From the IMG/VR virus record IMGVR_UViG_3300037231_000119, positions 64,001 through 128,000 of that record: a stretch of 64,000 nucleotides of DNA; one strand, written 5' to 3'. This DNA is from a virus. The notes beneath the pieces were generated by a model that worked only from the letters and a program-made list of their open reading frames with translations, was not told the DNA's origin and did no database searches. The position numbers and the translations under genes were made by a program. Of the stretch, positions 9,188 to 51,272 are shown piece by piece. How positions within the stretch are numbered: position 1 is the stretch's first letter; the number at the start of each line of letters is the position of its first letter.

Positions 9188-9415
9188 TTAATTCTTTGGG
9201 GGTTTTACTGGAGCGCCTGATTGAGGGTCCTTCACTCTGCCTTCCAACATGGAGACGAACCTGATATCTTCTGGATCGTTCGGATTTACCCATTTCATTT
9301 GCGACTTACTTGATAATCCGCCCGGTGGGATAGGGGTTTTTGCAACATGGACAGTAGTATGTTTGGAGGGTAATTTAGCTGCTGAGGGTAGTCCTGCTAC
9401 CCCACCGCTTTTGGG
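9188..9415 (-). other. Probable programmed -1 frameshift (C CCA AAA, 9409-9415) giving a 73-aa C-terminal extension to 9397..11775
   Basis: In-frame X XXY YYZ heptamer; hairpin GGGGTAG-cagga-CTACCCT 5 nt downstream; -1 frame closed by TGA just before the heptamer and open to TAA at 9188-9190. Confidence 0.75.
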
Positions 9416-11775
9416 TCACTCTGACCCTCCGCTTTCGGTCCATCTGGCGCACCGGATTGTGTAGCTTCCGCGACCGCACCCGGATCCTGAGGTGCATCTG
9501 AACTCATCTTAGGCTCGAGACCTAAGAGTTTGCACAGCTCGATCATGGCCTTAAGCATCTGGATCGTGCTTTGGTAAAGTCCGGGACTTTGATCTTTAGC
9601 CTCTTCTAGGAATGCCTTATTTGCCTTAAATCCCTGTAACGTTTGGGATACTTGATCTATAACCTGCGCCCTCTTTTGTTCCTGCGCGTGGTCATCTAAA
9701 CCACCCTGGAGAACTCCAGCCATATCTGGTTCATCCTGGCCATCTTCAGCCATCGGATCTTGTCCCGATTCTTGTCCCAATTCTCCATTTTGTCCCGATT
9801 CCTGAGCCATCTGATCCGCATCGCCCTGTGTACCTTGATAGTCTGGAGAGGCCATACGATCGATCGGACCTTCTTCTCCGCCTTGACTTCCAGGGCAATC
9901 TGGACAGTTACATTCATGGTCGCTATTCTGCATGTCCTTTTCAGCATCTGAAACGTTATTCTTTTGCTTATCGCCAAAGTTTTCGGGGACAGAGGCCCCC
10001 TCTTCCATCTCGTCGCCTTGAGGAAGTTCAGTATTGTCAATCTTTTTAGCTTCAGCCTCAGGAGTTTGGTCACCCTCTCCTGGCTTCTGATCCAATAGGT
10101 CTAAAACTTCTTCAGCCGTTTCATGTCCTTGTAGATTGGGATCTTCTTGGCCAGTTTGATCTGGCTGCTCTTCGATAGCGTCCCCATACATCTCTTGGCA
10201 CTGCGGACAGTTGTCTGGTTGCTCGGCAGACATATCTTGGACACCCAAAGCGGTCGCATCATGTTTTGGGCAATTCGGGCAGTTACAAATATGGTCTACG
10301 TCTTGTCCTTCGGGAGTCCCAGCTTGAGCTTCTCCAACGGTTTCGGATTCACAATAAGGGCAACCATCTACGCCGCCAGCCTCATCGGGAGTATCTTGGC
10401 AGTATGGGCAGTCATCCTCTTCCGAACTTTCCTGACAATATGGACAATCATCCGTATCTATCCCACCAGTATTTTGCTGGGAAGCATCGTATTCCTTACA
10501 AGCATCACAATCATGCATCCCAGCCGAACCATCCGCATTTTCTTGAGCATCCAAATCTTGGCAATAAGCACAGTCGTCCGTACGGTTATCTTCTTGATCA
10601 GGATTCTGAAAACCCTTGTCTTCTTTGTCGGCAGCTCCGTTATGGAAGCCCTCTTCATGCTTATGAAGATTATGGGTATGTTCAGACTTATACATCTCGG
10701 GCTTAGACATCCCCGCCTTGGAATCAGATCGTAGTTCTGATGCTGGATCGCTGTGTTGGTACGCAGCTCGACTATGTTGGTCAGCTATTTTAGAATGGAT
10801 ATCTCTATGTGCGGGATCCTTAGCTCTTTCTTTGCTACCGAACGCTCCTTGTTTTCCTTGATGAAAACGCCCCAGATCATTGTGAATTTTGGCCGCGTCG
10901 GCATGATCTTGCGGAGTGTATTTTAAAGTATTGGCAAACGCTTCAGATCGAAAATGAACCGGTTTCTTAGATTGGGTATGCCCCACAATATCGGAATCCT
11001 TGGGATGAACTGGTGCCGCATCCGAATCTGATTTATGAAGACCGCATGTATGTTCATACTTTACCATAGGCGCTGTAGTAGGTGCTGGGACTACGGTTAC
11101 CACGTGCCTCATTATGGCGCCATGTTTCTGATCTCTTTTATCCGCAGCACTATGTAAGCCCTTTTTACTTCCCACCGTTCCTTTATAGTGAAGAGTGCCG
11201 GTAGTGGGGCTATGAGAAGCTAAATGATATTTTTCGCCAGGCTTTAGATCTGGGGCGCCATAGAGACCGTGTTCACCTTCAGCTTTATGTAAATCGCACT
11301 TCATATTTTCGCTCTTTTCCAGATAAGCATCCGCAAGCTTCATCTCTTCTTGATTGGCAGTTTTAGCCTTAACTTTTTCGCGCATTTTATCAATGCCCTT
11401 TTCTACTTTAGGTCCATACCAAACCGTCTTATTCTTACCTGTAGCTTTGGCGTAGAGGAGACTTCTACCCGCTTCAGACAAGTCCTTACCAATACCAACT
11501 GAAATATTTAAGTCGGTGGCCTCGTAGTACTTACTTCTTAGCTCTTCCACATCTTTAGCGGCTTCAAACGGGATGCGAAAACTCCCCTCATCTCCACCAC
11601 CAGAAATTCTTTTACCACCACGCTCTGATACCCACTGATTAACGATCTCGTGACCCAAATCGATCTTGGCCGAGATATTGTGGAGAGCCTTCTCATCATT
11701 TGCAATGATGGCCTTACCGCACTGGCGACCAGCACCGTCCGCATCATAAGTAAGTCTGAGCATGGGCTTACTCAT
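9397..11775 (-). CDS. Putative head polyprotein: N-terminal mCpol (minimal CRISPR polymerase)-like domain, His-rich modules, acidic CxxC-repeat region
   Basis: YDADGAG...GGKRISGGGDEG...ISVGIG...A..SLLYAKATGKN; LEKSE, LHKAE, LHKSD, MYKSE; eight CxxC units. Confidence 0.7.
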   Translation of the reverse strand: MSKPMLRLTYDADGAGRQCGKAIIANDEKALHNISAKIDLGHEIVNQWVSERGGKRISGGGDEGSFRIPFEAAKDVEELRSKYYEATDLNISVGIGKDLSEAGRSLLYAKATGKNKTVWYGPKVEKGIDKMREKVKAKTANQEEMKLADAYLEKSENMKCDLHKAEGEHGLYGAPDLKPGEKYHLASHSPTTGTLHYKGTVGSKKGLHSAADKRDQKHGAIMRHVVTVVPAPTTAPMVKYEHTCGLHKSDSDAAPVHPKDSDIVGHTQSKKPVHFRSEAFANTLKYTPQDHADAAKIHNDLGRFHQGKQGAFGSKERAKDPAHRDIHSKIADQHSRAAYQHSDPASELRSDSKAGMSKPEMYKSEHTHNLHKHEEGFHNGAADKEDKGFQNPDQEDNRTDDCAYCQDLDAQENADGSAGMHDCDACKEYDASQQNTGGIDTDDCPYCQESSEEDDCPYCQDTPDEAGGVDGCPYCESETVGEAQAGTPEGQDVDHICNCPNCPKHDATALGVQDMSAEQPDNCPQCQEMYGDAIEEQPDQTGQEDPNLQGHETAEEVLDLLDQKPGEGDQTPEAEAKKIDNTELPQGDEMEEGASVPENFGDKQKNNVSDAEKDMQNSDHECNCPDCPGSQGGEEGPIDRMASPDYQGTQGDADQMAQESGQNGELGQESGQDPMAEDGQDEPDMAGVLQGGLDDHAQEQKRAQVIDQVSQTLQGFKANKAFLEEAKDQSPGLYQSTIQMLKAMIELCKLLGLEPKMSSDAPQDPGAVAEATQSGAPDGPKAEGQSDPKAVG

Positions 11776-15016: not shown

Positions 15017-16660
15017 TTATTTCTCTTTTCCGTAGGCTTCTCTGACTTTTGCAACGTGCCAGTGATTTTTGATATCCTGTTTATTTTTTAAAGCGCCTTT
15101 TGTTCCCTGAATTCCATTCAGCCACCCATAGGCTAAATTGTCTGGATTGTTACCCAATACATGCTCCATATGGGATAGGTGCCTATCAGCGATGGTGTTT
15201 TCGAGACCCTTATGGTCGTTCATATAATTATGAAGCTGTTGACCCTTAAGCGCTAAAGCCTTGCCATGTTTTGAGGCCAAATCTTTATGGCCTTTGATAG
15301 TCTCTCTAATAGTTTCTGGCATCAATCCATAGGCGCCATACGCATGCTCAGCCCCATGAATTGGTCCACCACCTGCGGCATGATTCGTGTTTTTTCCACC
15401 ACTCGACTCAACAGAGGCGATAGCCCTAAGCATCTTAGCGTGGTCATAGTTTGATTTAGGTTGGGCGTGTTGAATGCTGGCAGGAGACCGATTTCCAGCA
15501 TCTGTTTGAGGAGCAGATCCAGCTAAGGCGCCAGCCATACCAAGTGCAATACCGGCATTTTTGAGTGCGCCTTTTTCCAAAGACTCGCTTTTATCAAAAT
15601 CTGGATTGTTAAGTCTAGCTCTAGCCTCTGAAAGATAGTTCGGACTTCCAGGCTTAGATTTCATTTTATTCTTTATTGGAGCCATTCTTTCAGCTTCGAG
15701 ATGCTCTAATTGCTGTCCCGACTCTCTCTTTATATCTTTAGCATGGCTGATATTTTTTGATCTGGATTGTTGAGAAGCCATCACGGAATTAAGCTCATCA
15801 CCTGCATTACCGGCCTTCGCTTTATTGGGACTAAGAGCGGCTATGCCCATAAGAGCGCCAGCGGTTTTTTCTTTCCAGCCCTTGTGGAGTTCACATTCTC
15901 CCTTACTCACTTTCTCAGGCAACTTCTTTCCCTTGGTCGCCTCATCCCATTCATGGACACCAGCTTCACCACCTAGAGCTTTTTCTCCATTAGGGGTGTG
16001 CGCCCATCTCTCTTGTGCTAGACTTTCGTAAGGCTTGGCCAATGGCTTCTTACCGAGAACATTTTCAGCTTTAGTAACCGGCACATTCACCTTAGCCGTA
16101 AAATCCGAATGATCCGGAAACTTGGGTTCGGCAGTATCGGCTTCGTGATGGTAAGTTTTGATAGTTTTGGGGCCCTTATTGAGAACTGCATTTCCAAAAG
16201 ACAATCCGGCTTCATGGGCCGTTTTTGCACCGGAAGATTTAATTTTATCCCAAGTACCTTTATCAACACTCACATGCGGAGACCATTCAAATTTTGAAGG
16301 GTGGCCCATATGAGCAAACTTTCCATTGTGCTCCTTCATCTTATCGGCCGAGTTCCCCTTTAATTTGACGACAAATACGTCGTTCCCATTACGATCTTTA
16401 AACTGGGCAGGCTCTATTTGCGTATTTTTAGCATCAGGGGGATTTAGTGGGAGATGTTGGGCCAAATCATGAATGGAGTGAAGATGGTCCTTTTCTTTAT
16501 TGAATTCTTTCAGACTAGCGTGATATCCAATGTTATTATCGGGCCTGTGAGTTTGGCCGTTGATCTTTACGGGATAGCCAAGAAGGATTCCCTCTGAGGC
16601 TAGTTTCGCATAACCGGCAGGATCTTCTTTTTTGTGGAGGTTAGGCGCATTTTTTGACAT
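15017..16660 (-). CDS. Putative head polyprotein: Acb1-like 2H phosphodiesterase, small modules, two hydrophobic segments, lytic transglycosylase (SLT-like)
   Basis: YHASL and PHVSV 82 aa apart; AIASVESSGG..AYGAYGLMPET..AYGWLNG; VTKAE, VSKGE, LHKGW, FDKSE, LEKGA. Confidence 0.75.
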   Translation of the reverse strand: MSKNAPNLHKKEDPAGYAKLASEGILLGYPVKINGQTHRPDNNIGYHASLKEFNKEKDHLHSIHDLAQHLPLNPPDAKNTQIEPAQFKDRNGNDVFVVKLKGNSADKMKEHNGKFAHMGHPSKFEWSPHVSVDKGTWDKIKSSGAKTAHEAGLSFGNAVLNKGPKTIKTYHHEADTAEPKFPDHSDFTAKVNVPVTKAENVLGKKPLAKPYESLAQERWAHTPNGEKALGGEAGVHEWDEATKGKKLPEKVSKGECELHKGWKEKTAGALMGIAALSPNKAKAGNAGDELNSVMASQQSRSKNISHAKDIKRESGQQLEHLEAERMAPIKNKMKSKPGSPNYLSEARARLNNPDFDKSESLEKGALKNAGIALGMAGALAGSAPQTDAGNRSPASIQHAQPKSNYDHAKMLRAIASVESSGGKNTNHAAGGGPIHGAEHAYGAYGLMPETIRETIKGHKDLASKHGKALALKGQQLHNYMNDHKGLENTIADRHLSHMEHVLGNNPDNLAYGWLNGIQGTKGALKNKQDIKNHWHVAKVREAYGKEK

Positions 16661-19166: not shown

Positions 19167-19622
19167 ATGAAGCTTAAGATGACCAAAAGGGAAGTTATTC
19201 AAAAAGCAAAGAGGGTCCTGGAGCAAGAAGGGGTCACCTATGAGATTAAAGCCGAAGAGGCCTGTGGGTGGGCTTATCCCAAAGATAGCCATGTTATAGT
19301 CGGCACTCTAGGATACGACACTGATCAGTTGGCCTCAGTTTTTTGTCACGAACTAGCGCACGTATTGAATTTTAGGAATAGGAAGTACTTCAGATACCAT
19401 AATGGCGGTTTCGATTTTGATCTTTCTCCCGAATTGTGTAAAATGCGTATTCAAATCGGACTTAAAGCTGAAATATACACCGATATGGTAGCCAAAAAGC
19501 TTATGAGGAAGTATTACCCTGGCATGAAATTTATTCCCAGCTATTCAAAGAAATGGCAGCGCGATTGGTATCATAAAAATATCTTGGGTCAATGTAGAGA
19601 GTTTTTGGAGGGCGTGAAATGA
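19167..19622 (+). CDS. Zn metallopeptidase-like protein (HExxH, ImmA/IrrE-like); start revised to 19167
   Basis: FCHELAH..E; promoter TTGAAA-N17-TATAGT (19132-19160) with ATG 6 nt downstream. Confidence 0.65.
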   Translation: MKLKMTKREVIQKAKRVLEQEGVTYEIKAEEACGWAYPKDSHVIVGTLGYDTDQLASVFCHELAHVLNFRNRKYFRYHNGGFDFDLSPELCKMRIQIGLKAEIYTDMVAKKLMRKYYPGMKFIPSYSKKWQRDWYHKNILGQCREFLEGVK

Positions 19623-20470
19623 GTAAGTCTGTTGAATGTAATATTCCCTGTAAGCTATGTGGAAGTTTAGACATAGCGGTCGTATATAGGGAATGTAGCC
19701 ATATTAAGCCCTCCTATCATTGCAATAAGTGTGGCCATAGTAAAACCGTAGATGAGTGGATTAGTGCCCAATCCCATGAGGATTTAGGTAAGTGGGCGAA
19801 ACCACATATCTCCGCTATGGAAGAGATAATAAAAGAGCTAGCTACGGAAAAGTCAAATAAGGAACCCCGTATTAGTCCAGAAGACGTTGCATTTTTAAGA
19901 TCTTTTAATAAGAAAATTGAAGATCTAAATAAGGAAGAGAACGATAGGATAATCGGTTCAGTATCTCACGAGGCAATGATGGAGTGTTTAGCTACGGACG
20001 ACCCAAATAGGGTTACCCCAGAAACCGTTCTCGGGGCAATGAAAGAGGAGTCTGAAGCGATTAAAGAATATTATGAGGGGGTTAAAGGTGACCGAAATGC
20101 CTTCTACGACTCCACTCGGGCCATCCGCCACGATCAAAATAAGCCCCATATGGACCTTTTGAGTCCGATCGCCATGTTTGGAACTGCTCAAGTGTTGACT
20201 AAGGGATTGGAGAAATATCCTGGGAGTCAGTGGAAAAAGGGAATGGCGTGGTCCAAAGTTATTGCTTCTCTGTTAAGACACGCCTTTAAATTTATGGCAG
20301 GGGAAGACTTGGATTACGATCCAAAGTGCGTAGGGTGCCAAAATAAGAGCTGTAAGGAGCACACAGGGCTGCCTCATATAGACTGTATGGCCGTAAATGT
20401 GATGTTTTTACAGGAATATTACAGGAAGCACAAGAATTTGGATGATCGGATTAAGACGGGGTTGGAATGA
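19619..20470 (+). CDS. Zn ribbon plus DUF5664-like dATP/dGTP diphosphohydrolase domain
   Basis: HDQNKPHMDLL..VLTKGLEKY..WKKGM..SLLRH..GEDLD..TGLPH. Confidence 0.75.
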   Translation: MSKSVECNIPCKLCGSLDIAVVYRECSHIKPSYHCNKCGHSKTVDEWISAQSHEDLGKWAKPHISAMEEIIKELATEKSNKEPRISPEDVAFLRSFNKKIEDLNKEENDRIIGSVSHEAMMECLATDDPNRVTPETVLGAMKEESEAIKEYYEGVKGDRNAFYDSTRAIRHDQNKPHMDLLSPIAMFGTAQVLTKGLEKYPGSQWKKGMAWSKVIASLLRHAFKFMAGEDLDYDPKCVGCQNKSCKEHTGLPHIDCMAVNVMFLQEYYRKHKNLDDRIKTGLE

Positions 20471-20499: not shown

Positions 20500-21006
20500 C
20501 TATCTGTTGCTTTTTCTCATCTCAATTAGAAGATTCGTTATAGCTATCATTTCAATATAAGATATGGAATTATTTTTAATTAGATTGCATGTGGAACAAC
20601 AAGGAACCACATTGTCAGCATAGTAGTCTTTACTGTTATCTTTTCTGTCTAGGCCGTGCCCTGTTTCTGGGAGTCTTCCCTTGCAGTAATGGCAGGAGTC
20701 ATCTTCCACTATGGAAATCCATTCATCCAAAGTAATGTGCCAGCTATAGCCCCTATCTTTGGCAGCTATTATACCTCTTTTGAATCTACTTTTGTTCTTT
20801 CTAGCATGCCCATACGATTTTGCTCGTCTTTCATCTCTATTCGCTAAGTAGTATTTTTTAGATTGAGCGTTCAATTCTTCCCTATTAGAGTTGTTGCGCT
20901 CTATCGTACATTTTTGACAATAAGTCTGAACACCGTCTTTTCGGGCCTTATTTTTTTGGAAATCCCCGATATCTTTTTCTAAATTGCATCCTTTACAGAT
21001 TTTCAT
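20500..21006 (-). CDS. HNH homing endonuclease
   Basis: KICKGC..F..YC..C; CHYC..GLDRKDNSKDY..NVVPCCSTCN; upstream TTGACT-N16-TAATCT. Confidence 0.8.
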   Translation of the reverse strand: MKICKGCNLEKDIGDFQKNKARKDGVQTYCQKCTIERNNSNREELNAQSKKYYLANRDERRAKSYGHARKNKSRFKRGIIAAKDRGYSWHITLDEWISIVEDDSCHYCKGRLPETGHGLDRKDNSKDYYADNVVPCCSTCNLIKNNSISYIEMIAITNLLIEMRKSNR

Positions 21007-21121: not shown

Positions 21122-22525
21122 TTAGGTAAACAATTGTCCTTGCAAATTCTCGACGATTGCATTTTTCCGTGGCGCCTCTACTGCGAGCGTAGTCCACCTG
21201 TAAAAAGCATTGTTAATGCTCAATTGAGAGATACCGAGCTGAAGCTTTTTAAAGCCACTCAGTTCGCCCATGTGTCCCGTATCCTTCTGAATCAGGAAAC
21301 CCGTGAGAGCGCCAGGAGCCATGTTGCCAAGGTCCGTGAACGTCGCACCACTTGGGGCCGCCGCGATATTCCCGATGAAGAGAACACCCGGAGAAACCGT
21401 AGCTGCCACACCGGCCGCCGTACGATACACACGGTAGTAGAGAGCGCCAGCAGCCGCACCGATCGTCAGAGTGACCTTGTTACCAGCGAGAGCAGGCGTA
21501 ACGGTCGAAACGGCCGAGAGAGGCCCTTCACCGTAGGCGTTAACCGCAGCAACAGCGTACGTATACGCAGCAGCCTGAAGGAGAGACCCAGCGGCCCCGC
21601 CGTCAGCAGAAGCCAACGTAGGCTGAGCAGGAGCGCCCTGAATCTGGACGTTGATCGGATTGATCTGTTTACGCAAATATTGCGACATTTCCATACTGAC
21701 GGCACCTGAGCTAGTCCACTGCGTGCGAAGATGCGCGCCAGTAGCTTCCTGAGGTGAACCAGCGAGAACGATACGTTCCTTAGCCTGGCTGATCTTGTTA
21801 TAAGCAGAGAGGCTGGAAGGATCCAACATCAGCTTGTCCGCGCGACCCATGTTAAGGGCAGAACGAACCGAGATATCTTCGATCAGGGACTGCGTAAGAG
21901 CAGCGCCACCAGCCGAGAACACAACCGTTGCGCTCGAACCGTACGAAGCGAACATCAGATCCTGTCCATTGCGCTCGAAATCCGAGGCGCGAACCTGGAG
22001 ATCCCAACCACGCATATTGGCGAGAGCAGGAACTAGGGCAGGATTGCCATCGAAGACTCCGTTGTTTGAGAAATCAGAGTTACCAGAGAACAGGTCGAAC
22101 TCGATGTCCTGAGCAAGGTTAAGGGCCGCATCCTGAGCTTGGCGCTCTTCAGCAGTCACCTTGTCAAACGTTTCAACAGCGTTCGCAACGAGCGAATGTT
22201 CGCGTGTATCGACGTAGTACGCCATTGGGACCACGAGACGAGCAGCTTGGCCAGTCTTTTTCGCGCCCAGCATACCTTCGTAAGCCGCTGATCCGCCGAA
22301 ACGGCCGACAGACAATTTACGATTGTACTGATAGAGATTCGACTTCGTATTACGAACATCGAGCATCTTCTGCAGTTTGATGGTCTCTTCGGCAGCCGTG
22401 ACATTGATCATCACTGGAGCCAGATCTTCGATTTGATAAGCAGCGCCCTGTACGAGGGTAGAAGGGGCGGCATTATATGAACCCGCTTCGAGTGCCTTCA
22501 TCAGAGTTTGGAGTTGGTCTAACAT
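21122..22525 (-). CDS. Major capsid protein (SPO1/Twort-like type, FN3-like insertion)
   Basis: KALEAG..GAAYQIEDL N-terminus; IEFDLFSG; YTYAVAAVNAYGEG..YYRVYR; follows the scaffold; strong terminator. Confidence 0.9.
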   Translation of the reverse strand: MLDQLQTLMKALEAGSYNAAPSTLVQGAAYQIEDLAPVMINVTAAEETIKLQKMLDVRNTKSNLYQYNRKLSVGRFGGSAAYEGMLGAKKTGQAARLVVPMAYYVDTREHSLVANAVETFDKVTAEERQAQDAALNLAQDIEFDLFSGNSDFSNNGVFDGNPALVPALANMRGWDLQVRASDFERNGQDLMFASYGSSATVVFSAGGAALTQSLIEDISVRSALNMGRADKLMLDPSSLSAYNKISQAKERIVLAGSPQEATGAHLRTQWTSSGAVSMEMSQYLRKQINPINVQIQGAPAQPTLASADGGAAGSLLQAAAYTYAVAAVNAYGEGPLSAVSTVTPALAGNKVTLTIGAAAGALYYRVYRTAAGVAATVSPGVLFIGNIAAAPSGATFTDLGNMAPGALTGFLIQKDTGHMGELSGFKKLQLGISQLSINNAFYRWTTLAVEAPRKNAIVENLQGQLFT

Positions 22526-22556: not shown

Positions 22557-23462
22557 CTACTTAAGTAGATGGCGGACAGATTCGACATTTTTACTAAAAT
22601 AGTAACTGTTAATGGCATCACGATCGGACTTAGTCAGAGAAACATCTTTTGCTTTAGCCAGAAGCTTCGCATCGATTTCACTCTTAGTAAGAGGTTTTTC
22701 GTTTTGGCCGCTTTCGGTCTTAGCGATGATATCCAGGGATGTAATCGCTTTACCGGCAGGAGCAGTTTTCTCAACGAATTTTTTCAGGAAGGCAGCAACA
22801 GCGGCAGTCTCAGCCTTAGCAGCTTCGAGTTCCGACTTAAGCATGCTAATTTCCATAGAAGGTTCTGATTTTTCGAGAGCTTGAGCACCGGTAGAAGCGG
22901 GACCTTTGCCTTCTTTTTCAGATTGACCGTCTTTAGGGCCACCGTTAGGACGGTAACCTTCAGCATCTTTAGCGCAATCTTCCATCTCAGCTTTAGCCAT
23001 GCCATCTTCGCATTTAGCCATGCCCATGCCTTCTAGGCACTTTCTCACAGCGTCATGATGAGCCTTCAGTTCAGGCTTAGACATCGAAGAGTACATCGAG
23101 TGCATGTGACCCATATCTTCGTCGTCGTAACCATGATCTTCATCGGCAGGCGCAGCACCATCTTTGGCCGCCATACCTGGCTGTTCTTGATCGTTTTCGC
23201 CTGGCTTATCTTCAGATTGCTGATCTTGATCCTTGACGCCCTTATCTTCGGGCTTTTCGGTTTCCATCGGCTTCTTTTCTTCGCCACTTGATTCGCTAGA
23301 AGCCTTCTTCTCGTCCTCTTTCTTAGATTCATCCTTTTTGGGAGGAAACTCGGATTTGGCGAGACCAAAACTTTTTTCAGCTTTGGCAAGATGCTTCGAA
23401 AATTCTTTTTCCACATCGGCCATCAGGCTTGAAAGTTGTTGTTCGTCGTACATGATTTTCAT
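22557..23462 (-). CDS. Capsid scaffolding protein
   Basis: Charged low-complexity protein directly upstream of MCP, with about nine (L/M/I)xK(S/A/C/T)(E/D) motifs. Confidence 0.75.
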   Translation of the reverse strand: MKIMYDEQQLSSLMADVEKEFSKHLAKAEKSFGLAKSEFPPKKDESKKEDEKKASSESSGEEKKPMETEKPEDKGVKDQDQQSEDKPGENDQEQPGMAAKDGAAPADEDHGYDDEDMGHMHSMYSSMSKPELKAHHDAVRKCLEGMGMAKCEDGMAKAEMEDCAKDAEGYRPNGGPKDGQSEKEGKGPASTGAQALEKSEPSMEISMLKSELEAAKAETAAVAAFLKKFVEKTAPAGKAITSLDIIAKTESGQNEKPLTKSEIDAKLLAKAKDVSLTKSDRDAINSYYFSKNVESVRHLLK

Positions 23463-24402: not shown

Positions 24403-24903
24403 ATGAAAACATGCACAAATCCGATATGCGATCAAATAAACCCCCAACCCTTAACGCAATTTTATAAAAAGAAGAGTGGGAGAGATGGACTAAATGGTAG
24501 GTGTGTAAAGTGTACCAATAAGCAAACAGATGCTTGGTGTGCCCGTAATACCGAAAAGGTGAAGGTTACCAAAAACAAATGGACGACCAACAATACAGAA
24601 AAAGTTAGGGAAAATGGCCAAAAATGGGATAAATTAAATCCAGGTAAAAAAGCCGCTCAAGTTCGTAAGTATCAGGCTTCTAAGCTTAATGCGACTCCCA
24701 AATGGCTTACTAAAGAACAACTTAAGGAAATGCAGGCCCTATATGTTGAAGCGGCCCTAAAAACCAGAGAAACTGGAATCCCCCATGAAGTCGATCATGA
24801 GGAGCCCCTACAGGGTAAGAATATCTGCGGATTGCACGTACCATGGAATCTGAAGGTGGTTACGAGGACCGAAAACCGTAAAAAGAGCAATACGGGTAAA
24901 TAG
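24403..24903 (+). CDS. HNH homing endonuclease
   Basis: ATPKW..Y..HEVDHEEPLQGKNICGLHVPWNL..EN..KSN. Confidence 0.85.
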   Translation: MKTCTNPICDQINPQPLTQFYKKKSGRDGLNGRCVKCTNKQTDAWCARNTEKVKVTKNKWTTNNTEKVRENGQKWDKLNPGKKAAQVRKYQASKLNATPKWLTKEQLKEMQALYVEAALKTRETGIPHEVDHEEPLQGKNICGLHVPWNLKVVTRTENRKKSNTGK

Positions 24904-24931: not shown

Positions 24932-26791
24932 ATGTCAACTTATATTTCGGGCGTAGCTAGTTGTTCCGCAATTGATACCGCTGGGGAAATTGTAGATATT
25001 AGCGGTCTCGACATAACCTCCTTAGCTCGTAGCGGTACTTGTAACTGGGAACACAAAGCCGACACCCCGGCACAAACAGTTGGCAAAATACTAAAGGCAA
25101 AAAAGATCTTTAGTGAAAAAGACTGTGAAGATTCCAATCAAAAACACTTTTGGGATAAAACCAAACTACCGTTCGTATATATAGTTGCGGAGCTTTTGGA
25201 TGATTATACGGCTAGTGCAAAAGAATGTGCTGGTCAGATGAGGTACAGTAAGGACCATCCCGAACTATCGGCAATTTTAGGATTTTCCGTTGAAGGAAGT
25301 GAAATACCCGGAACCAGGAAAAATTCCATGCTGATCACACGATCGATTGCAAGAAAGGTTACGCTTACCGTATCTCCAGCAAATAAGTTATGTATTGCTC
25401 AAATTTTCGAGAACCCAGAACAAAAATCCCAAGTCAAAGATGATTTTGAAGAATTGTTTCGTTCTGACCAAGAAGCTATCACTCTCTTCAAGTCAGGTGA
25501 AGGCGAAAAGATTTACGAATCCTATTTGGCCAAAAAAGAGCATGAGCCTAAGAAGCCGTGTAAACATAAGAAAATGAAAAAAGATGAATTTGGTTATCCA
25601 GATTCCCCTAAAACTTCAGCGCCCCCTCCAGAACCAAATAAAGCAAACGCCCAAGCTATGCAAAATGGCGCTGAATCAGGCGGTCCAAGTTTCTCTCAGG
25701 GCCTATCTAACCTGGCCAATGGCTTAATGGGTAAAAGTGAAAACTTCGGATGGTCTAAGGGTAAAGTGGATAAGGATAAAAAGGCAGTTCACTACGAACA
25801 CCCAACTCATGGCACGGTTTCCGTAATCAGACACGATAATGGCGATTTCCACGTAAAGCATCGTGGGGCTTTGGCTGGTGTTGGTGGAGTTAAGGGCTCT
25901 TTCCCTACTTCTGGAGAAGCCGGTACTCACGCTAAGAAATATATGTCTTCCTTAAGCCAGGGTAAAACTTTGGCACCACAAATGCATAATATTTCATCAA
26001 CGGACGTTGCGAGCAAAAAACATCTTAAAAAAGCCATCGATGCCGGTTCCTACAATGCCGCCCCCTCTACCCTAGCTTCCGGTGCCGCTTATCAACGCGA
26101 AAGTCTTGGTTCAAAGCCTGCAACTACTGGGGCTGAAGACCATAACTTTCAGGGGACTAAGAAGAAGGACTGGAATAAGAGATCGAAAGAAGATTACGAG
26201 AATTGGCCCCAAAAAGAGAAGTTTGAGAAGTTTATGTCTGCTAGAATGCCTCATTTGGCATTAGGCGAGATAAAAGCTCTGGGCCGGGCGATATGCTTGA
26301 AAAAGAACATCGAGGCGGAGAAAGCTCTTGGTAATTTGGTTTTGGGTAAGTCTGAAGAGGACCCCAAACTCGGCAATCATTTTCTTTTCAGTGCTGAAAA
26401 TCCAATGCATCCCCATAAAAATGAAAGCAGGATGGACCATAAACAGACCCTGGTACACTTAAAAAGTAAGGGTTTTGATGCCAATGAAGTTAAGGGGCAT
26501 TATGGCGCTCCGGAGACCTCGATCATGGTCCACAATGTTAATCCCAAACAGGCAGAGCATCTTCACGGAATAGCCTCCAAACTTGGTCAGGATAGTTCGA
26601 TCTATAGTAATAATGGCAAGCATGAGATGCGCTACCATCACGGTGAAAAGGCAGGAAAGTCCCATTTAGGTTCTGGTACCGAATTCCATAAAGAAAAGCC
26701 TAAGGATTTCTATACTACTCTACCTAATGGAAAACACTTCACTCACAATTTTGATTTTGATCAATTACATAATAGTAAAAAGAAAAAATAG
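24932..26791 (+). CDS. Prohead protease polyprotein: HK97/U35-like protease, internal copy of the MCP N-terminus, C-terminal SAM lyase-like domain
   Basis: ISGVAS..IDTAGEIV..G.D..NWEH..GFSVEG..VTLT.SPAN; KAIDAGSYNAAPSTL; FSAENP..GHYG..ETS..GQDS. Confidence 0.85.
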   Translation: MSTYISGVASCSAIDTAGEIVDISGLDITSLARSGTCNWEHKADTPAQTVGKILKAKKIFSEKDCEDSNQKHFWDKTKLPFVYIVAELLDDYTASAKECAGQMRYSKDHPELSAILGFSVEGSEIPGTRKNSMLITRSIARKVTLTVSPANKLCIAQIFENPEQKSQVKDDFEELFRSDQEAITLFKSGEGEKIYESYLAKKEHEPKKPCKHKKMKKDEFGYPDSPKTSAPPPEPNKANAQAMQNGAESGGPSFSQGLSNLANGLMGKSENFGWSKGKVDKDKKAVHYEHPTHGTVSVIRHDNGDFHVKHRGALAGVGGVKGSFPTSGEAGTHAKKYMSSLSQGKTLAPQMHNISSTDVASKKHLKKAIDAGSYNAAPSTLASGAAYQRESLGSKPATTGAEDHNFQGTKKKDWNKRSKEDYENWPQKEKFEKFMSARMPHLALGEIKALGRAICLKKNIEAEKALGNLVLGKSEEDPKLGNHFLFSAENPMHPHKNESRMDHKQTLVHLKSKGFDANEVKGHYGAPETSIMVHNVNPKQAEHLHGIASKLGQDSSIYSNNGKHEMRYHHGEKAGKSHLGSGTEFHKEKPKDFYTTLPNGKHFTHNFDFDQLHNSKKKK

Positions 26792-49246: not shown

Positions 49247-50217
49247 AGATTCTTCGATTAGGAGACATGCACGTAAAAGTTTCAAATCTCGAGGAGTCGG
49301 AAAGGCTCCTCAAATTCGTATTGGATACGGCTCTAGAACGCAAAGTTGATCGTTTGGAAATTCTTGGCGATTTGTTCGACACCCACTCTATCATCAGGCT
49401 TGAGGTTATGGAGTTTTGGGACCGATGGCTCCATATGCTAGCAAAACAAACCTTTGACACCCGAGTTTTAGTAGGAAACCATGATATTACAGGTAACTTC
49501 AGTTCTACTTATTCTGCTCTGTCTACTTTTCGCGATCTAGATATCGTGGTTTACGAACCAGAAGTTACGGGCCCATTTGGATATCTACCCTATATTCACG
49601 ACAATAGTGAATTTGTTAAAGAGGCCAATAACTTAGCCAATTTGGGGGCACGTTTCCTAGTTTCCCATAATACCTATCAAGGATCTAAATATGACAATGG
49701 AATGTATGCTCCTGACGGTGTTGATCCTGACCTTATTGATAGCCGCATTCACACGCTTCTTTCTGGCCATGTCCACACAGCCCAAGACTTTGGACGCGTC
49801 ATCTATCCTGGAACTGCTCGTTGGGCAAGCCAATCAGACGCTAATAGGGCAAAAGGAATTTCATTATTCACTCATGCCAAGCATGACGGGACCATTCTTG
49901 ATAGAGAATTTATCTCAACCGCAGGAGTTTGTGTACCCCTTATCAGCATTGAGCTTAGAGAGGGCGGAGTTTTACCAGAATTTCCAGATAATGGGCGAGT
50001 TAGTGTCCAGTTAATTGGTTCTTCGGATTGGATCGCTCGGACTAAACTCGAGCTTAAGGGAACTTGCAGTATTACTACTAAGATCACGGATTCTAAGAAG
50101 TCCAAAGAACGTAAGAGTGGTCGTAGTTTGCATGAGTTTTTGACCAATCACTACCAAGCCGAACCAGAAAAGAAAGTTAAGCTTCTGAAGTATATGGAGG
50201 GACTATACCTTGTCTGA
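49243..50217 (+). CDS. SbcD/Mre11-like nuclease
   Basis: GDMH, LGDLFD, VGNHD, SH, SGHVH, YPGT. Confidence 0.9.
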   Translation: MKILRLGDMHVKVSNLEESERLLKFVLDTALERKVDRLEILGDLFDTHSIIRLEVMEFWDRWLHMLAKQTFDTRVLVGNHDITGNFSSTYSALSTFRDLDIVVYEPEVTGPFGYLPYIHDNSEFVKEANNLANLGARFLVSHNTYQGSKYDNGMYAPDGVDPDLIDSRIHTLLSGHVHTAQDFGRVIYPGTARWASQSDANRAKGISLFTHAKHDGTILDREFISTAGVCVPLISIELREGGVLPEFPDNGRVSVQLIGSSDWIARTKLELKGTCSITTKITDSKKSKERKSGRSLHEFLTNHYQAEPEKKVKLLKYMEGLYLV

Positions 50218-50527
50218 TCAACCCTCCCTCCAAGACCTGACCAAATTGGTCCTCTTTAGCGGCAGATTAAGTGAAGTACATGTCAAAAATCTAGAAGCGT
50301 TCCCCTTCATATTCTTTAATGGGGTTGAAGAGGCTAAGATAGAGCATGACATTTCTACCGTTAAGGATATTCCAAGTACTGTATTTTACGATCTTACCCT
50401 AAATGAGGACAATGATCATATAGAGTACCGGTGTAAGACTCTTGAAGACGCAGTCAGAAGCTTATTTTGGAACGAAGTTAAGCTGAAGATATCGATTAAT
50501 TCCGAAGAGGTATATAAAAGTGAGTGA
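50210..50527 (+). CDS. Hypothetical protein
   Basis: Overlapping ORF in the operon. Confidence 0.6.
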   Translation: MSDQPSLQDLTKLVLFSGRLSEVHVKNLEAFPFIFFNGVEEAKIEHDISTVKDIPSTVFYDLTLNEDNDHIEYRCKTLEDAVRSLFWNEVKLKISINSEEVYKSE

Positions 50528-51272
50528 TAGAAATACAAAAATAAGTGATGGGCAAGAAATTTCCATTATTCCTAAATTTGATTTTACGATGAAAGATATG
50601 GAAATGATTAATAAATTTAAGGATGACGGTATGTTGGGGATCGCGAGTCTGGATACGACCAATGTCGAGAGAAGTATGGCGCTCTACCTAGATGGCAAGA
50701 CCTACCGCCAGATAGCCAACGTCCTAAAGATAAATAAGTCCATAATCCTATTTTTGGCCCACAAGTACTCTTGGTATGAACTTAGAGAACAATATCTGGA
50801 AGAATTGAAGGTGACTATACCCAATAAGATTCTGGAGCATAAACTTCAGTCCCAAGAGTTTCTACTAGAATTAAGTCAGGCTTACAGAAAGAAAATTGCC
50901 AAGAACGTTCATCAATATCTTAGAACGGACGATCCTAAGTATTTTGAAAAAAATGACGCTAAGGACGTGACTTCATGGCTAAAAATTGAAGAAATGATCT
51001 ACTCGACTGCGGAACATATTAGTAGGCAGAGCGAAAAATCCATGGTTGGGCTGAATGGTCTCGGAGAAGGTATGACCATTACTAAGACTGGCGCCAATTC
51101 CATAGAAATCACCCCTAAGGGCCCAAGTCCCTTCGGATCCAAGCTTAAGGCCTTCGCTGAACTCAAACGTGAGCAGGAACGCGCTAATGCGCCAGAGCCC
51201 AAACCCGCTCATGATATAGTCAAAGAGAATGAAAACCCAACAAAGAAAGAGAAAGAAGATGAAGTTAAATAA
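50520..51272 (+). CDS. HTH protein, possible terminase small subunit
   Basis: ALYLDGKTYRQIANVLKI..KYSW..R followed by a helical region. Confidence 0.45.
   Translation: MSDRNTKISDGQEISIIPKFDFTMKDMEMINKFKDDGMLGIASLDTTNVERSMALYLDGKTYRQIANVLKINKSIILFLAHKYSWYELREQYLEELKVTIPNKILEHKLQSQEFLLELSQAYRKKIAKNVHQYLRTDDPKYFEKNDAKDVTSWLKIEEMIYSTAEHISRQSEKSMVGLNGLGEGMTITKTGANSIEITPKGPSPFGSKLKAFAELKREQERANAPEPKPAHDIVKENENPTKKEKEDEVK

Follow-up and report, generated by a model that had tools for sequence, protein, structure and literature searches.

Introduction

To our knowledge, S-adenosylmethionine (SAM) lyases are known only as early-gene products; incoming DNA is therefore exposed until they have been made, and a pre-loaded copy would close this gap. 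The closest described relatives of the enzyme considered here are the SAM lyase of phage T3 (gp0.3, SAMase; PDB codes 8BB1 and 7OCK) and Svi3-3 (PDB code 6ZM9). The present study concerns a 162,446-bp viral contig rated complete by CheckV (IMG/VR record IMGVR_UViG_3300037231_000119), of which bases 64001-128000 were analysed as one stretch of 64,000 nucleotides, hereafter the window, to which positions refer unless the genome is named. The gene at 24932-26791 encodes a prohead protease polyprotein in which the phage has joined a T3-type SAM lyase-family domain to the C-terminus of its capsid-maturation protease, behind a likely cut site. This domain belongs to the same Pfam family, PF23780, as T3 SAMase and Svi3-3 and keeps the G-x-Y, E-x-S/T and Q-D/E-S motifs; its sequence suggests the same reaction, the conversion of SAM to methylthioadenosine and homoserine lactone, and a similar role against type I restriction-modification (R-M) and BREX (bacteriophage exclusion) systems. 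T3 SAMase, however, is a free early-gene product, which also binds MetK via its N-terminal tail, whereas here the lyase forms the final module of a protein of the late head genes, and its N-terminus is unrelated; Svi3-3 is a trimer whose active sites lie at the interfaces, whereas the domain in the window resembles the monomeric T3 form. The SAM-AMP (SAM-adenosine monophosphate) lyase and the candidate AcrIIIB4 (PMC12255297) belong to the same superfamily and keep the catalytic Glu and Gln, and the phage version is likewise fused to another domain, but SAM-AMP lyases are trimeric, PII-type and specific for SAM-AMP, whereas the structure nearest to the domain described here is that of T3 SAM lyase.

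With this enzyme, the SAM lyase family gains a new member, and the delivery proposed for it resembles that of the T4 internal proteins, the Dar proteins of phage P1, the ejection proteins of phages phiKZ and SPN3US, and the polyvalent proteins. The T4 internal proteins, of which IPI* is an anti-restriction factor, and Alt (cut by gp21), together with the phiKZ and SPN3US ejection proteins (gp175/gp245, S/A/G-x-E), represent the same scheme as would apply here, namely prohead loading, trimming by a Glu-specific protease of the assemblin fold and delivery with the DNA; those cargoes are encoded by separate genes and have N-terminal targeting propeptides, whereas here the cargo, an expectedly metabolite-destroying enzyme, sits on the C-terminus of the protease itself and the motif is x-K-S/A-E. 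The P1 Dar proteins (DarA, DarB, Hdf) are also packed into the head and injected, and they act against type I restriction, but they are unrelated, do not target SAM and form no fusion with the protease. In polyvalent proteins (Iyer et al. 2017, PMC5512222), conflict-related modules and a built-in peptidase are combined in one polypeptide, for which packaging and processing are predicted; two or more conflict-related domains and a processing peptidase are found here as well, but not the C-terminal position of the peptidase. That survey (PMC5512222) gives C-termini as the only location of the assemblin-like peptidase, whereas here the peptidase, which is the head-maturation protease of the phage itself, lies at the N-terminus. 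No prior description of a virion-packaged or protease-fused SAM lyase was found in the literature, the coverage of which was partial and is not proof of novelty; no mention of SAMase was found in the polyvalent-protein paper (PMC5512222) or in a jumbo-phage survey.

Architecture of the protease polyprotein

The gene and its parts are arranged in the window as follows.

24932..26791, + strand: open reading frame of the prohead protease polyprotein (protease, linker, module B, module C, SAM lyase), 619 residues
24932..25426, + strand: protease domain of the assemblin/T4 gp21 fold, residues 1-165 (predicted model, structure match, homology to phage Mx1)
25727..25741, + strand: putative cleavage motif 1, M266-G-K-S-E270, before module B (junction conserved in relatives; motif statistics)
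25742..25981, + strand: module B, residues 271-350, conserved in the family
26009..26341, + strand: module C, residues 360-470, in most family members at the C-terminal end or close to it
26342..26356, + strand: putative cleavage motif 2, L471-G-K-S-E475, the cargo port before the SAM lyase domain
26357..26788, + strand: SAM-lyase-family domain, residues 476-619, 144 residues, predicted T3-type β-barrel with two helices
26495..26521, + strand: G522-H-Y524-G-A-P-E528-T-S530, opposite T3 G55, Y57 and E68 (Svi3-3 G56, Y58, E69 and S71)
26588..26596, + strand: Q553-D554-S555, opposite T3 Q94-D95 (Svi3-3 Q104-E105-S106)

The translation of 24932-26791 is a single uninterrupted frame of 619 residues. 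After L471-G-K-S-E475, the translation of 24932-26788 contains EDPKLGNHFLFSAENP..., VKGHYGAPETSIMV and IASKLGQDSSIY; an earlier note, made from the sequence of the window, had quoted the text after LGKSE, and the quotation matches the translation letter for letter. The range 26351-26791 spans S474 to the stop codon. The same fusion architecture was found in independent metagenomic proteins from JGI, ENA and Logan (P0010, P0008, P0003 and P0005), P0010 being 58% identical over 98% of the query. Module B, although conserved in relatives, has no Pfam match.

Identity of the C-terminal domain

The resemblance of the C-terminal domain to SAM lyases exceeds chance. The Pfam PF23780 match covers residues 497-603 and scores 28.6 bits with the complete protein as query and 32 bits with the domain alone, the cut-off of the family being 28 bits and the score of T3 SAMase 143 bits. 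A full scan of 1.8 billion representative proteins revealed 581 relatives of the domain, and 33 of the 51 aligned homologous domains match PF23780 (best match 8e-13); an hhalign comparison of the 51-domain profile with T3 SAMase alone gave nothing significant. AlphaFold 2 modelling based on the 51-sequence alignment predicted, with a predicted local distance difference test (pLDDT) score of 94, a structure of eight to nine strands and two helices, which agrees with the published description of T3 SAMase, a monomer whose barrel has nine strands and two helices on the outside (10.1101/2023.02.27.530186), and points to a T3-type fold with a ferredoxin-like, PII-related core. The Foldseek search of this model returned the T3 SAM lyase chain 8bb1_E first (probability 1.0), and a second look with the aligner VIA gave a Z-score of 12.1 and a root-mean-square deviation of 3.4 over 120 aligned residues for 8bb1_E and a Z-score of 10.9 for 7ock. 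The next fold family was that of the PII proteins (Z-score 5.1), and PII-type proteins have also been reported as distant structural neighbours of Svi3-3 (PMC7877911). A trimeric SAM-AMP lyase chain was not among the fold matches listed, an absence that does not exclude likeness.

The domain keeps the SAM-contacting residues known from Svi3-3 and T3. In a MAFFT alignment with T3 SAMase and with a second, stand-alone SAM lyase of the same genome (see below), G522, Y524, E528 and Q553 are invariant columns and D554 stands opposite T3 D95, the correspondence being one of sequence alignment and not of structure superposition. Conservation of these columns in the 51-sequence alignment is complete or at least 90%, the highest of all columns. 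Their counterparts in Svi3-3 (G56, Y58, E69, Q104 and E105) bind SAM (PMC7877911), and the T3 SAMase substitutions E68Q, Q94A and D95A reduce function (10.1101/2023.02.27.530186).

The proposal of the earlier note that a SAM lyase-like domain is attached to the prohead protease C-terminus is thus borne out by the Pfam match, the predicted fold, the conserved residues and the homology to the protease of phage Mx1 described below. Its suggestion of a relationship to DUF3293 holds weakly, 5 of the 51 homologous domains matching that family. The note had also drawn a comparison with Svi3-3 and recommended a Foldseek check against that structure: the ligand residues do align, but the check put T3 SAM lyase first, and the nearest fold is the monomeric T3 barrel and not the Svi3-3 trimer type, to which the domain, judging by the model, does not belong; Svi3-3 itself was not among the fold matches listed, and no inference is drawn from this.

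Protease domain and head-gene block

According to the predicted structure, the N-terminal domain is a prohead protease of the assemblin/T4 gp21 fold. In Myxococcus phage Mx1, the annotated prohead protease shares 34% identity with residues 2-180 (E-value 1e-24), and the N-terminus of the 619-residue protein matches phrog_1028, head maturation protease. The AlphaFold model of the domain, built from 37 homologs (pLDDT 87), gave VIA Z-scores of 9.2 both to T4 gp21 (5jbl, 119 residues aligned) and to the protease of varicella-zoster virus (VZV), and the top 36 fold matches were all herpesvirus or T4 capsid-maturation proteases. H41 and S119, in the order His before Ser, are invariant in the alignment of the 37 homologs and are the putative catalytic residues, a role assigned by sequence only.

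The genes of the scaffold-like and capsid proteins adjoin the protease gene on the opposite strand and face it.

22557..23462, - strand: scaffold-like acidic protein, 301 residues, predicted main substrate of the protease (seven K[SA]E motifs, six in extended form)
21122..22525, - strand: major capsid protein (phrog_752, 1.9e-38)

Module C of the polyprotein repeats the N-terminus of this capsid protein: the similarity centres on residues 363-391 (26018-26104) and amounts to 38% identity over 72 residues, with an approximately identical core of 25 residues. Module C and residues ~6-35 of the capsid protein have the motif AGSYNAAPSTL..GAAYQ.E in common, which occurs in no other protein of the genome but is also held by the Mx1 protease. 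The motif could be a docking element or a cut site common to both proteins.

Putative cleavage sites

The sequence M/L-G-K-S-E occurs twice in the 619-residue protein, at 266-270 and 471-475. The distribution of related motifs, the extended form being defined as [LMFVI]-x-K-[SAG]-E, follows the module boundaries of the family, almost all of which are marked by it in relatives. In 14 of 16 SAM-lyase fusions, K-[SAGKT]-E lies within about 10 residues upstream of the domain; relatives that have a module after the SAM lyase domain contain K-S-E between the two, K-S-E often precedes module B, and family members without cargo terminate in ...K-S-E-K just past module C. Among 121 family members, the frequency of K[SAG]E per 1000 residues is 8.8 in the inter-module regions, whereas the protease domain has 0.4, module B 0.3 and the SAM lyase domain 1.4; the value of 6.1 for module C is probably due to the overlap of the module C envelope with the port.

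The motif is also enriched in the head genes. Proteins encoded at positions 5000-27000, which make up 14% of the proteome, contain 21 of the 31 extended motifs of the genome, a 13-fold enrichment with a binomial p of 8e-12, which is a generous value, the head region having been picked after the motif was known. The scaffold-like protein contains seven K[SA]E motifs against 1.26 expected, a count reached by none of 500 shuffled sequences. Cleavage after Glu is typical of the head proteases of the T4 and phiKZ types, and gp245 of SPN3US cleaves a C-terminal propeptide from itself (PMC10052503).

Since the same motif lies at module junctions in relatives and is enriched in the scaffold-like protein and the head-gene block, LGKSE is a credible candidate for a protease site, which agrees with the autocleavage after LGKSE envisaged in the earlier note; the free fragment of about 145 residues estimated there corresponds to a predicted fragment of 144 residues.

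A short C-x-L-H-K motif was observed near K-S/A-E sites or immediately ahead of them in the proteins encoded at 9397-11775 and 15017-16660 (both described below) and in the linkers of P0008, P0010, P0020 and P0047.

Swappable cargo, other carriers and a second SAM lyase

The closest 121 relatives have the protease, the linker, module B and module C in common, and the SAM lyase follows in 17 of them; the protease domain is N-terminal in all 121 family members examined, three of which are seemingly truncated at the N-terminus. One relative, 80% identical in the aligned part, ends after module C, and its next gene encodes HSP20. Others carry at the same port a GNAT domain (P0047) or a helical module, some have extra modules between module C and the lyase, and relatives add up to three further modules. 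A Pfam scan of nine other tails and inserts of relatives found no named family except for a weak GNAT match. The cultured Myxococcus phage Mx1 (OR576727.2, 13002-16721) has an annotated prohead protease of 1239 residues, in which the protease and the capsid-like motif are followed by some 900 more residues with a weak match to PI3/PI4 kinases near the end (E-value 0.008).

The SAM lyase module is found on other proteins as well, one family of which is represented in the window without it.

15017..16660, - strand: head-region polyprotein, 547 residues, with three cleavage-type motifs; its C-terminal ~190 residues are homologous to the SLT region of P0124

The nearest SAM lyase domains outside the protease fusions, those of P0123 and P0124, are 64% identical and lie at the N-terminus, followed by K-S-E. 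P0123, P0124 and others are orthologs of the 15017-16660 protein, with the SAM lyase module at the N-terminus: the C-terminal ~190 residues of that protein are 43-48% identical to P0123/P0124, and in P0124 the homologous region gives a Pfam SLT match at the cut-off. The N-terminal module of the 15017-16660 protein has no Pfam match, and in the orthologs the SAM lyase module precedes it. For P0126, a further carrier with the module at its N-terminus, the genomic context was uninformative. Of 150 representative carriers of the domain, 5 have it fused to the protease, at least 15 to orthologs of the 547-residue protein, and 14 are stand-alone, the last figure indicating that the domain is an autonomous unit; the remaining carriers are multidomain proteins of up to 2570 residues, some with GNAT, kinase-like or mCpol modules, in which the same SAM-lyase subfamily occurs in the manner of polyvalent proteins. 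To judge from these comparisons of sequence, the protease is one of several interchangeable carriers of the SAM lyase module.

The genome contains a second SAM lyase gene at genome positions 50172-50582, ~14 kb before the window. The stand-alone product of 136 residues matches PF23780 with 66 bits and possesses the G-V-Y...E and Q-E-S motifs; a phmmer search of this copy against solved structures gave nothing significant. None of three common families of DNA methyltransferases was found in the genome, which fits a phage able to afford the destruction of SAM.

A further gene of the window, 9397-11775 (- strand), encodes a head-region protein of 792 residues with an mCpol (minimal CRISPR polymerase) domain (PF18182, 7.7e-11) at residues 9-119, followed by LEKSE and a long acidic Cys-rich tail with repeated C-P-x-C; it contains four K[SA]E motifs against 0.8 expected.

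Proposed packaging and release, and alternative explanations

With modest confidence, we lean towards a SAM lyase that is packaged in the head, released by the protease and active ahead of all phage gene expression. Together with modules B and C, the protease part would carry the polyprotein into the prohead, module C mimicking the N-terminal motif of the capsid protein. During maturation, the protease would cut after E270 and E475, and the scaffold would be chopped into small peptides that exit; the folded domain of 144 residues, having no internal site and being too large to escape, would stay in the head and be ejected along with the DNA. Once inside the new host, it would convert SAM to methylthioadenosine and homoserine lactone from the first seconds of infection, and SAM-dependent defences, such as type I R-M and BREX, would be starved until the stand-alone SAM lyase gene is expressed.

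Several points weigh against this account. The T4 head protease destroys itself and its pieces leave the head, and the fused domain could be lost likewise. The dose may be too low: prohead proteases are present in copies on the order of 100 (T4, HK97) and an E. coli cell holds ~1e5 molecules of SAM, so that, at the Svi3-3 turnover of ~9.5 per second, depletion would take minutes; T3 SAMase, for comparison, is present in ~10,000 copies per cell (10.1101/2023.02.27.530186). The PF23780 score is barely above the cut-off, the identity to T3 SAMase is ~16-20%, and sequence-only searches, with phmmer for the whole protein and with the profile of the 51 domains, revealed no significant link to solved structures. 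The generous p-value of the motif enrichment mentioned above belongs here too. The loop between Y524 and E528 comprises 3 residues as against 10 in T3 SAMase, and the pocket may therefore differ; the Tyr-Glu loop of Svi3-3 is also 10 residues long, as follows from the published Y58/E69 numbering (PMC7877911). Finally, a phage member of the family cleaves SAM-AMP and not SAM (PMC12255297).

The last two points lead to the alternative that survives best, though we consider it unlikely: packaging and release would be the same, but the substrate would be a conjugate of SAM, such as the type III CRISPR (clustered regularly interspaced short palindromic repeats) signal SAM-AMP, or another sulfonium nucleotide, and the domain would serve as a pre-loaded anti-defence enzyme that degrades a signal. 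The phage enzyme just cited (PMC12255297) is a precedent within the family, and the T-loop of SAM-AMP lyases is remodelled because the loop found in SAM lyases would collide with the AMP group; it is this loop that is cut to 3 residues here, which could open the pocket. The canonical stand-alone SAM lyase of the genome leaves room for a division of labour, and mCpol, as a neighbouring cargo module, points to conflicts over nucleotide signals. The stand-alone copy, however, is itself short-looped, with 4 residues between its Y and E; moreover, all the SAM-contacting residues are retained in the fused domain, and the best structural match is the monomeric T3 barrel and not a trimeric PII-type SAM-AMP lyase.

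Next in rank, and improbable in our view, is the explanation that the domain, produced in bulk along with the late head proteins, acts only in the producing cell, depleting SAM late in infection while still within the precursor or once released, and that the fragment is then expelled or degraded and never delivered. Head proteins are abundant at that stage, the T4 protease loses its pieces from the head upon self-destruction, and propeptides generally leave the head (PMC10052503). Fusion to a protein internal to the prohead would, however, be a poor design for a cytoplasmic enzyme, and an early stand-alone copy is already present. The domain is also depleted in the cleavage motif relative to the inter-module regions (1.4 vs 8.8 per 1000 residues), and its compact fold of 144 residues would be unlikely to pass a capsid pore. 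In addition, the same module occurs in relatives on the SLT-related head-region polyprotein, which, by analogy with virion transglycosylases, is presumably ejected.

It is very unlikely that the domain is an inactive structural or regulatory appendage recruited from a SAM lyase, e.g., a plug for protease activation or for core spacing. C-terminal propeptides of head proteases are known, as in SPN3US gp245 (PMC10052503), and the marginal Pfam score would suit such a role, but conservation across the 51 diverse sequences, stand-alone proteins among them, is highest at the ligand-binding residues, and close relatives assemble without the domain, which is thus not needed for assembly. An artefact joining two separate genes, whether through a chimeric assembly, a frameshift or an overlooked stop codon, was rejected as practically negligible, because the frame is unbroken and the architecture recurs in many independent assemblies from three sources.

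Implications for related phages

If the head-packaged, protease-released SAM lyase is real, phages would deliver in the capsid not only DNA-binding or inhibitor proteins, but also enzymes that deplete a metabolite. Both the conservation of the x-K-S/A-E port behind module C and the exchange of cargo seen in nature suggest that packaging follows a general rule in this group of phages; the other modules found at the same port can be read as candidate anti-defence factors, and the port represents a natural template for placing enzymes of choice in phage heads. Perhaps, and more tentatively than the proposal for the single protein, a K-S/A-E port is standard in a clade of ~160-kb phages that includes Mx1, where the prohead protease and a few other head-region proteins would serve as carriers able to replace one another; swappable counter-defence enzymes (SAM lyase, GNAT, mCpol cyclase, a kinase-like module and the N-terminal module of the 15017-16660 protein) would be attached at this port, loaded into the capsid, released by cleavage and injected. 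In that case, the SAM lyase would be the first pre-packaged enzyme known to disarm the immunity of the host through the destruction of a metabolite as the DNA enters, with an expressed second copy as backup. The packaging principle is open to direct test in Mx1, a phage in culture whose protease bears a similar long extension.

Neighbouring genes

In the Mx1 genome, a gene annotated as encoding a nucleotide cyclase is located two genes downstream of the protease gene. In the relative that encodes P0008, genes for a phosphoribosyltransferase-like protein, NAPRTase and a Macro domain protein follow directly after the protease-SAM lyase gene; they look like a counter-defence set concerned with nicotinamide adenine dinucleotide (NAD) salvage or adenosine diphosphate (ADP)-ribose.

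Two HNH/endonuclease VII-like genes (phrog_1035) flank the capsid-scaffold-protease block in the window, one at 24403-24903 (+ strand), directly upstream of the protease gene, and the other at 20500-21006 (- strand); they may encode homing endonucleases. In the protein encoded at 19619-20470 (+ strand), the N-terminal domain matches the dATP/dGTP diphosphohydrolase family (PF18909, 3.8e-21), which is associated with phages that have modified purines.

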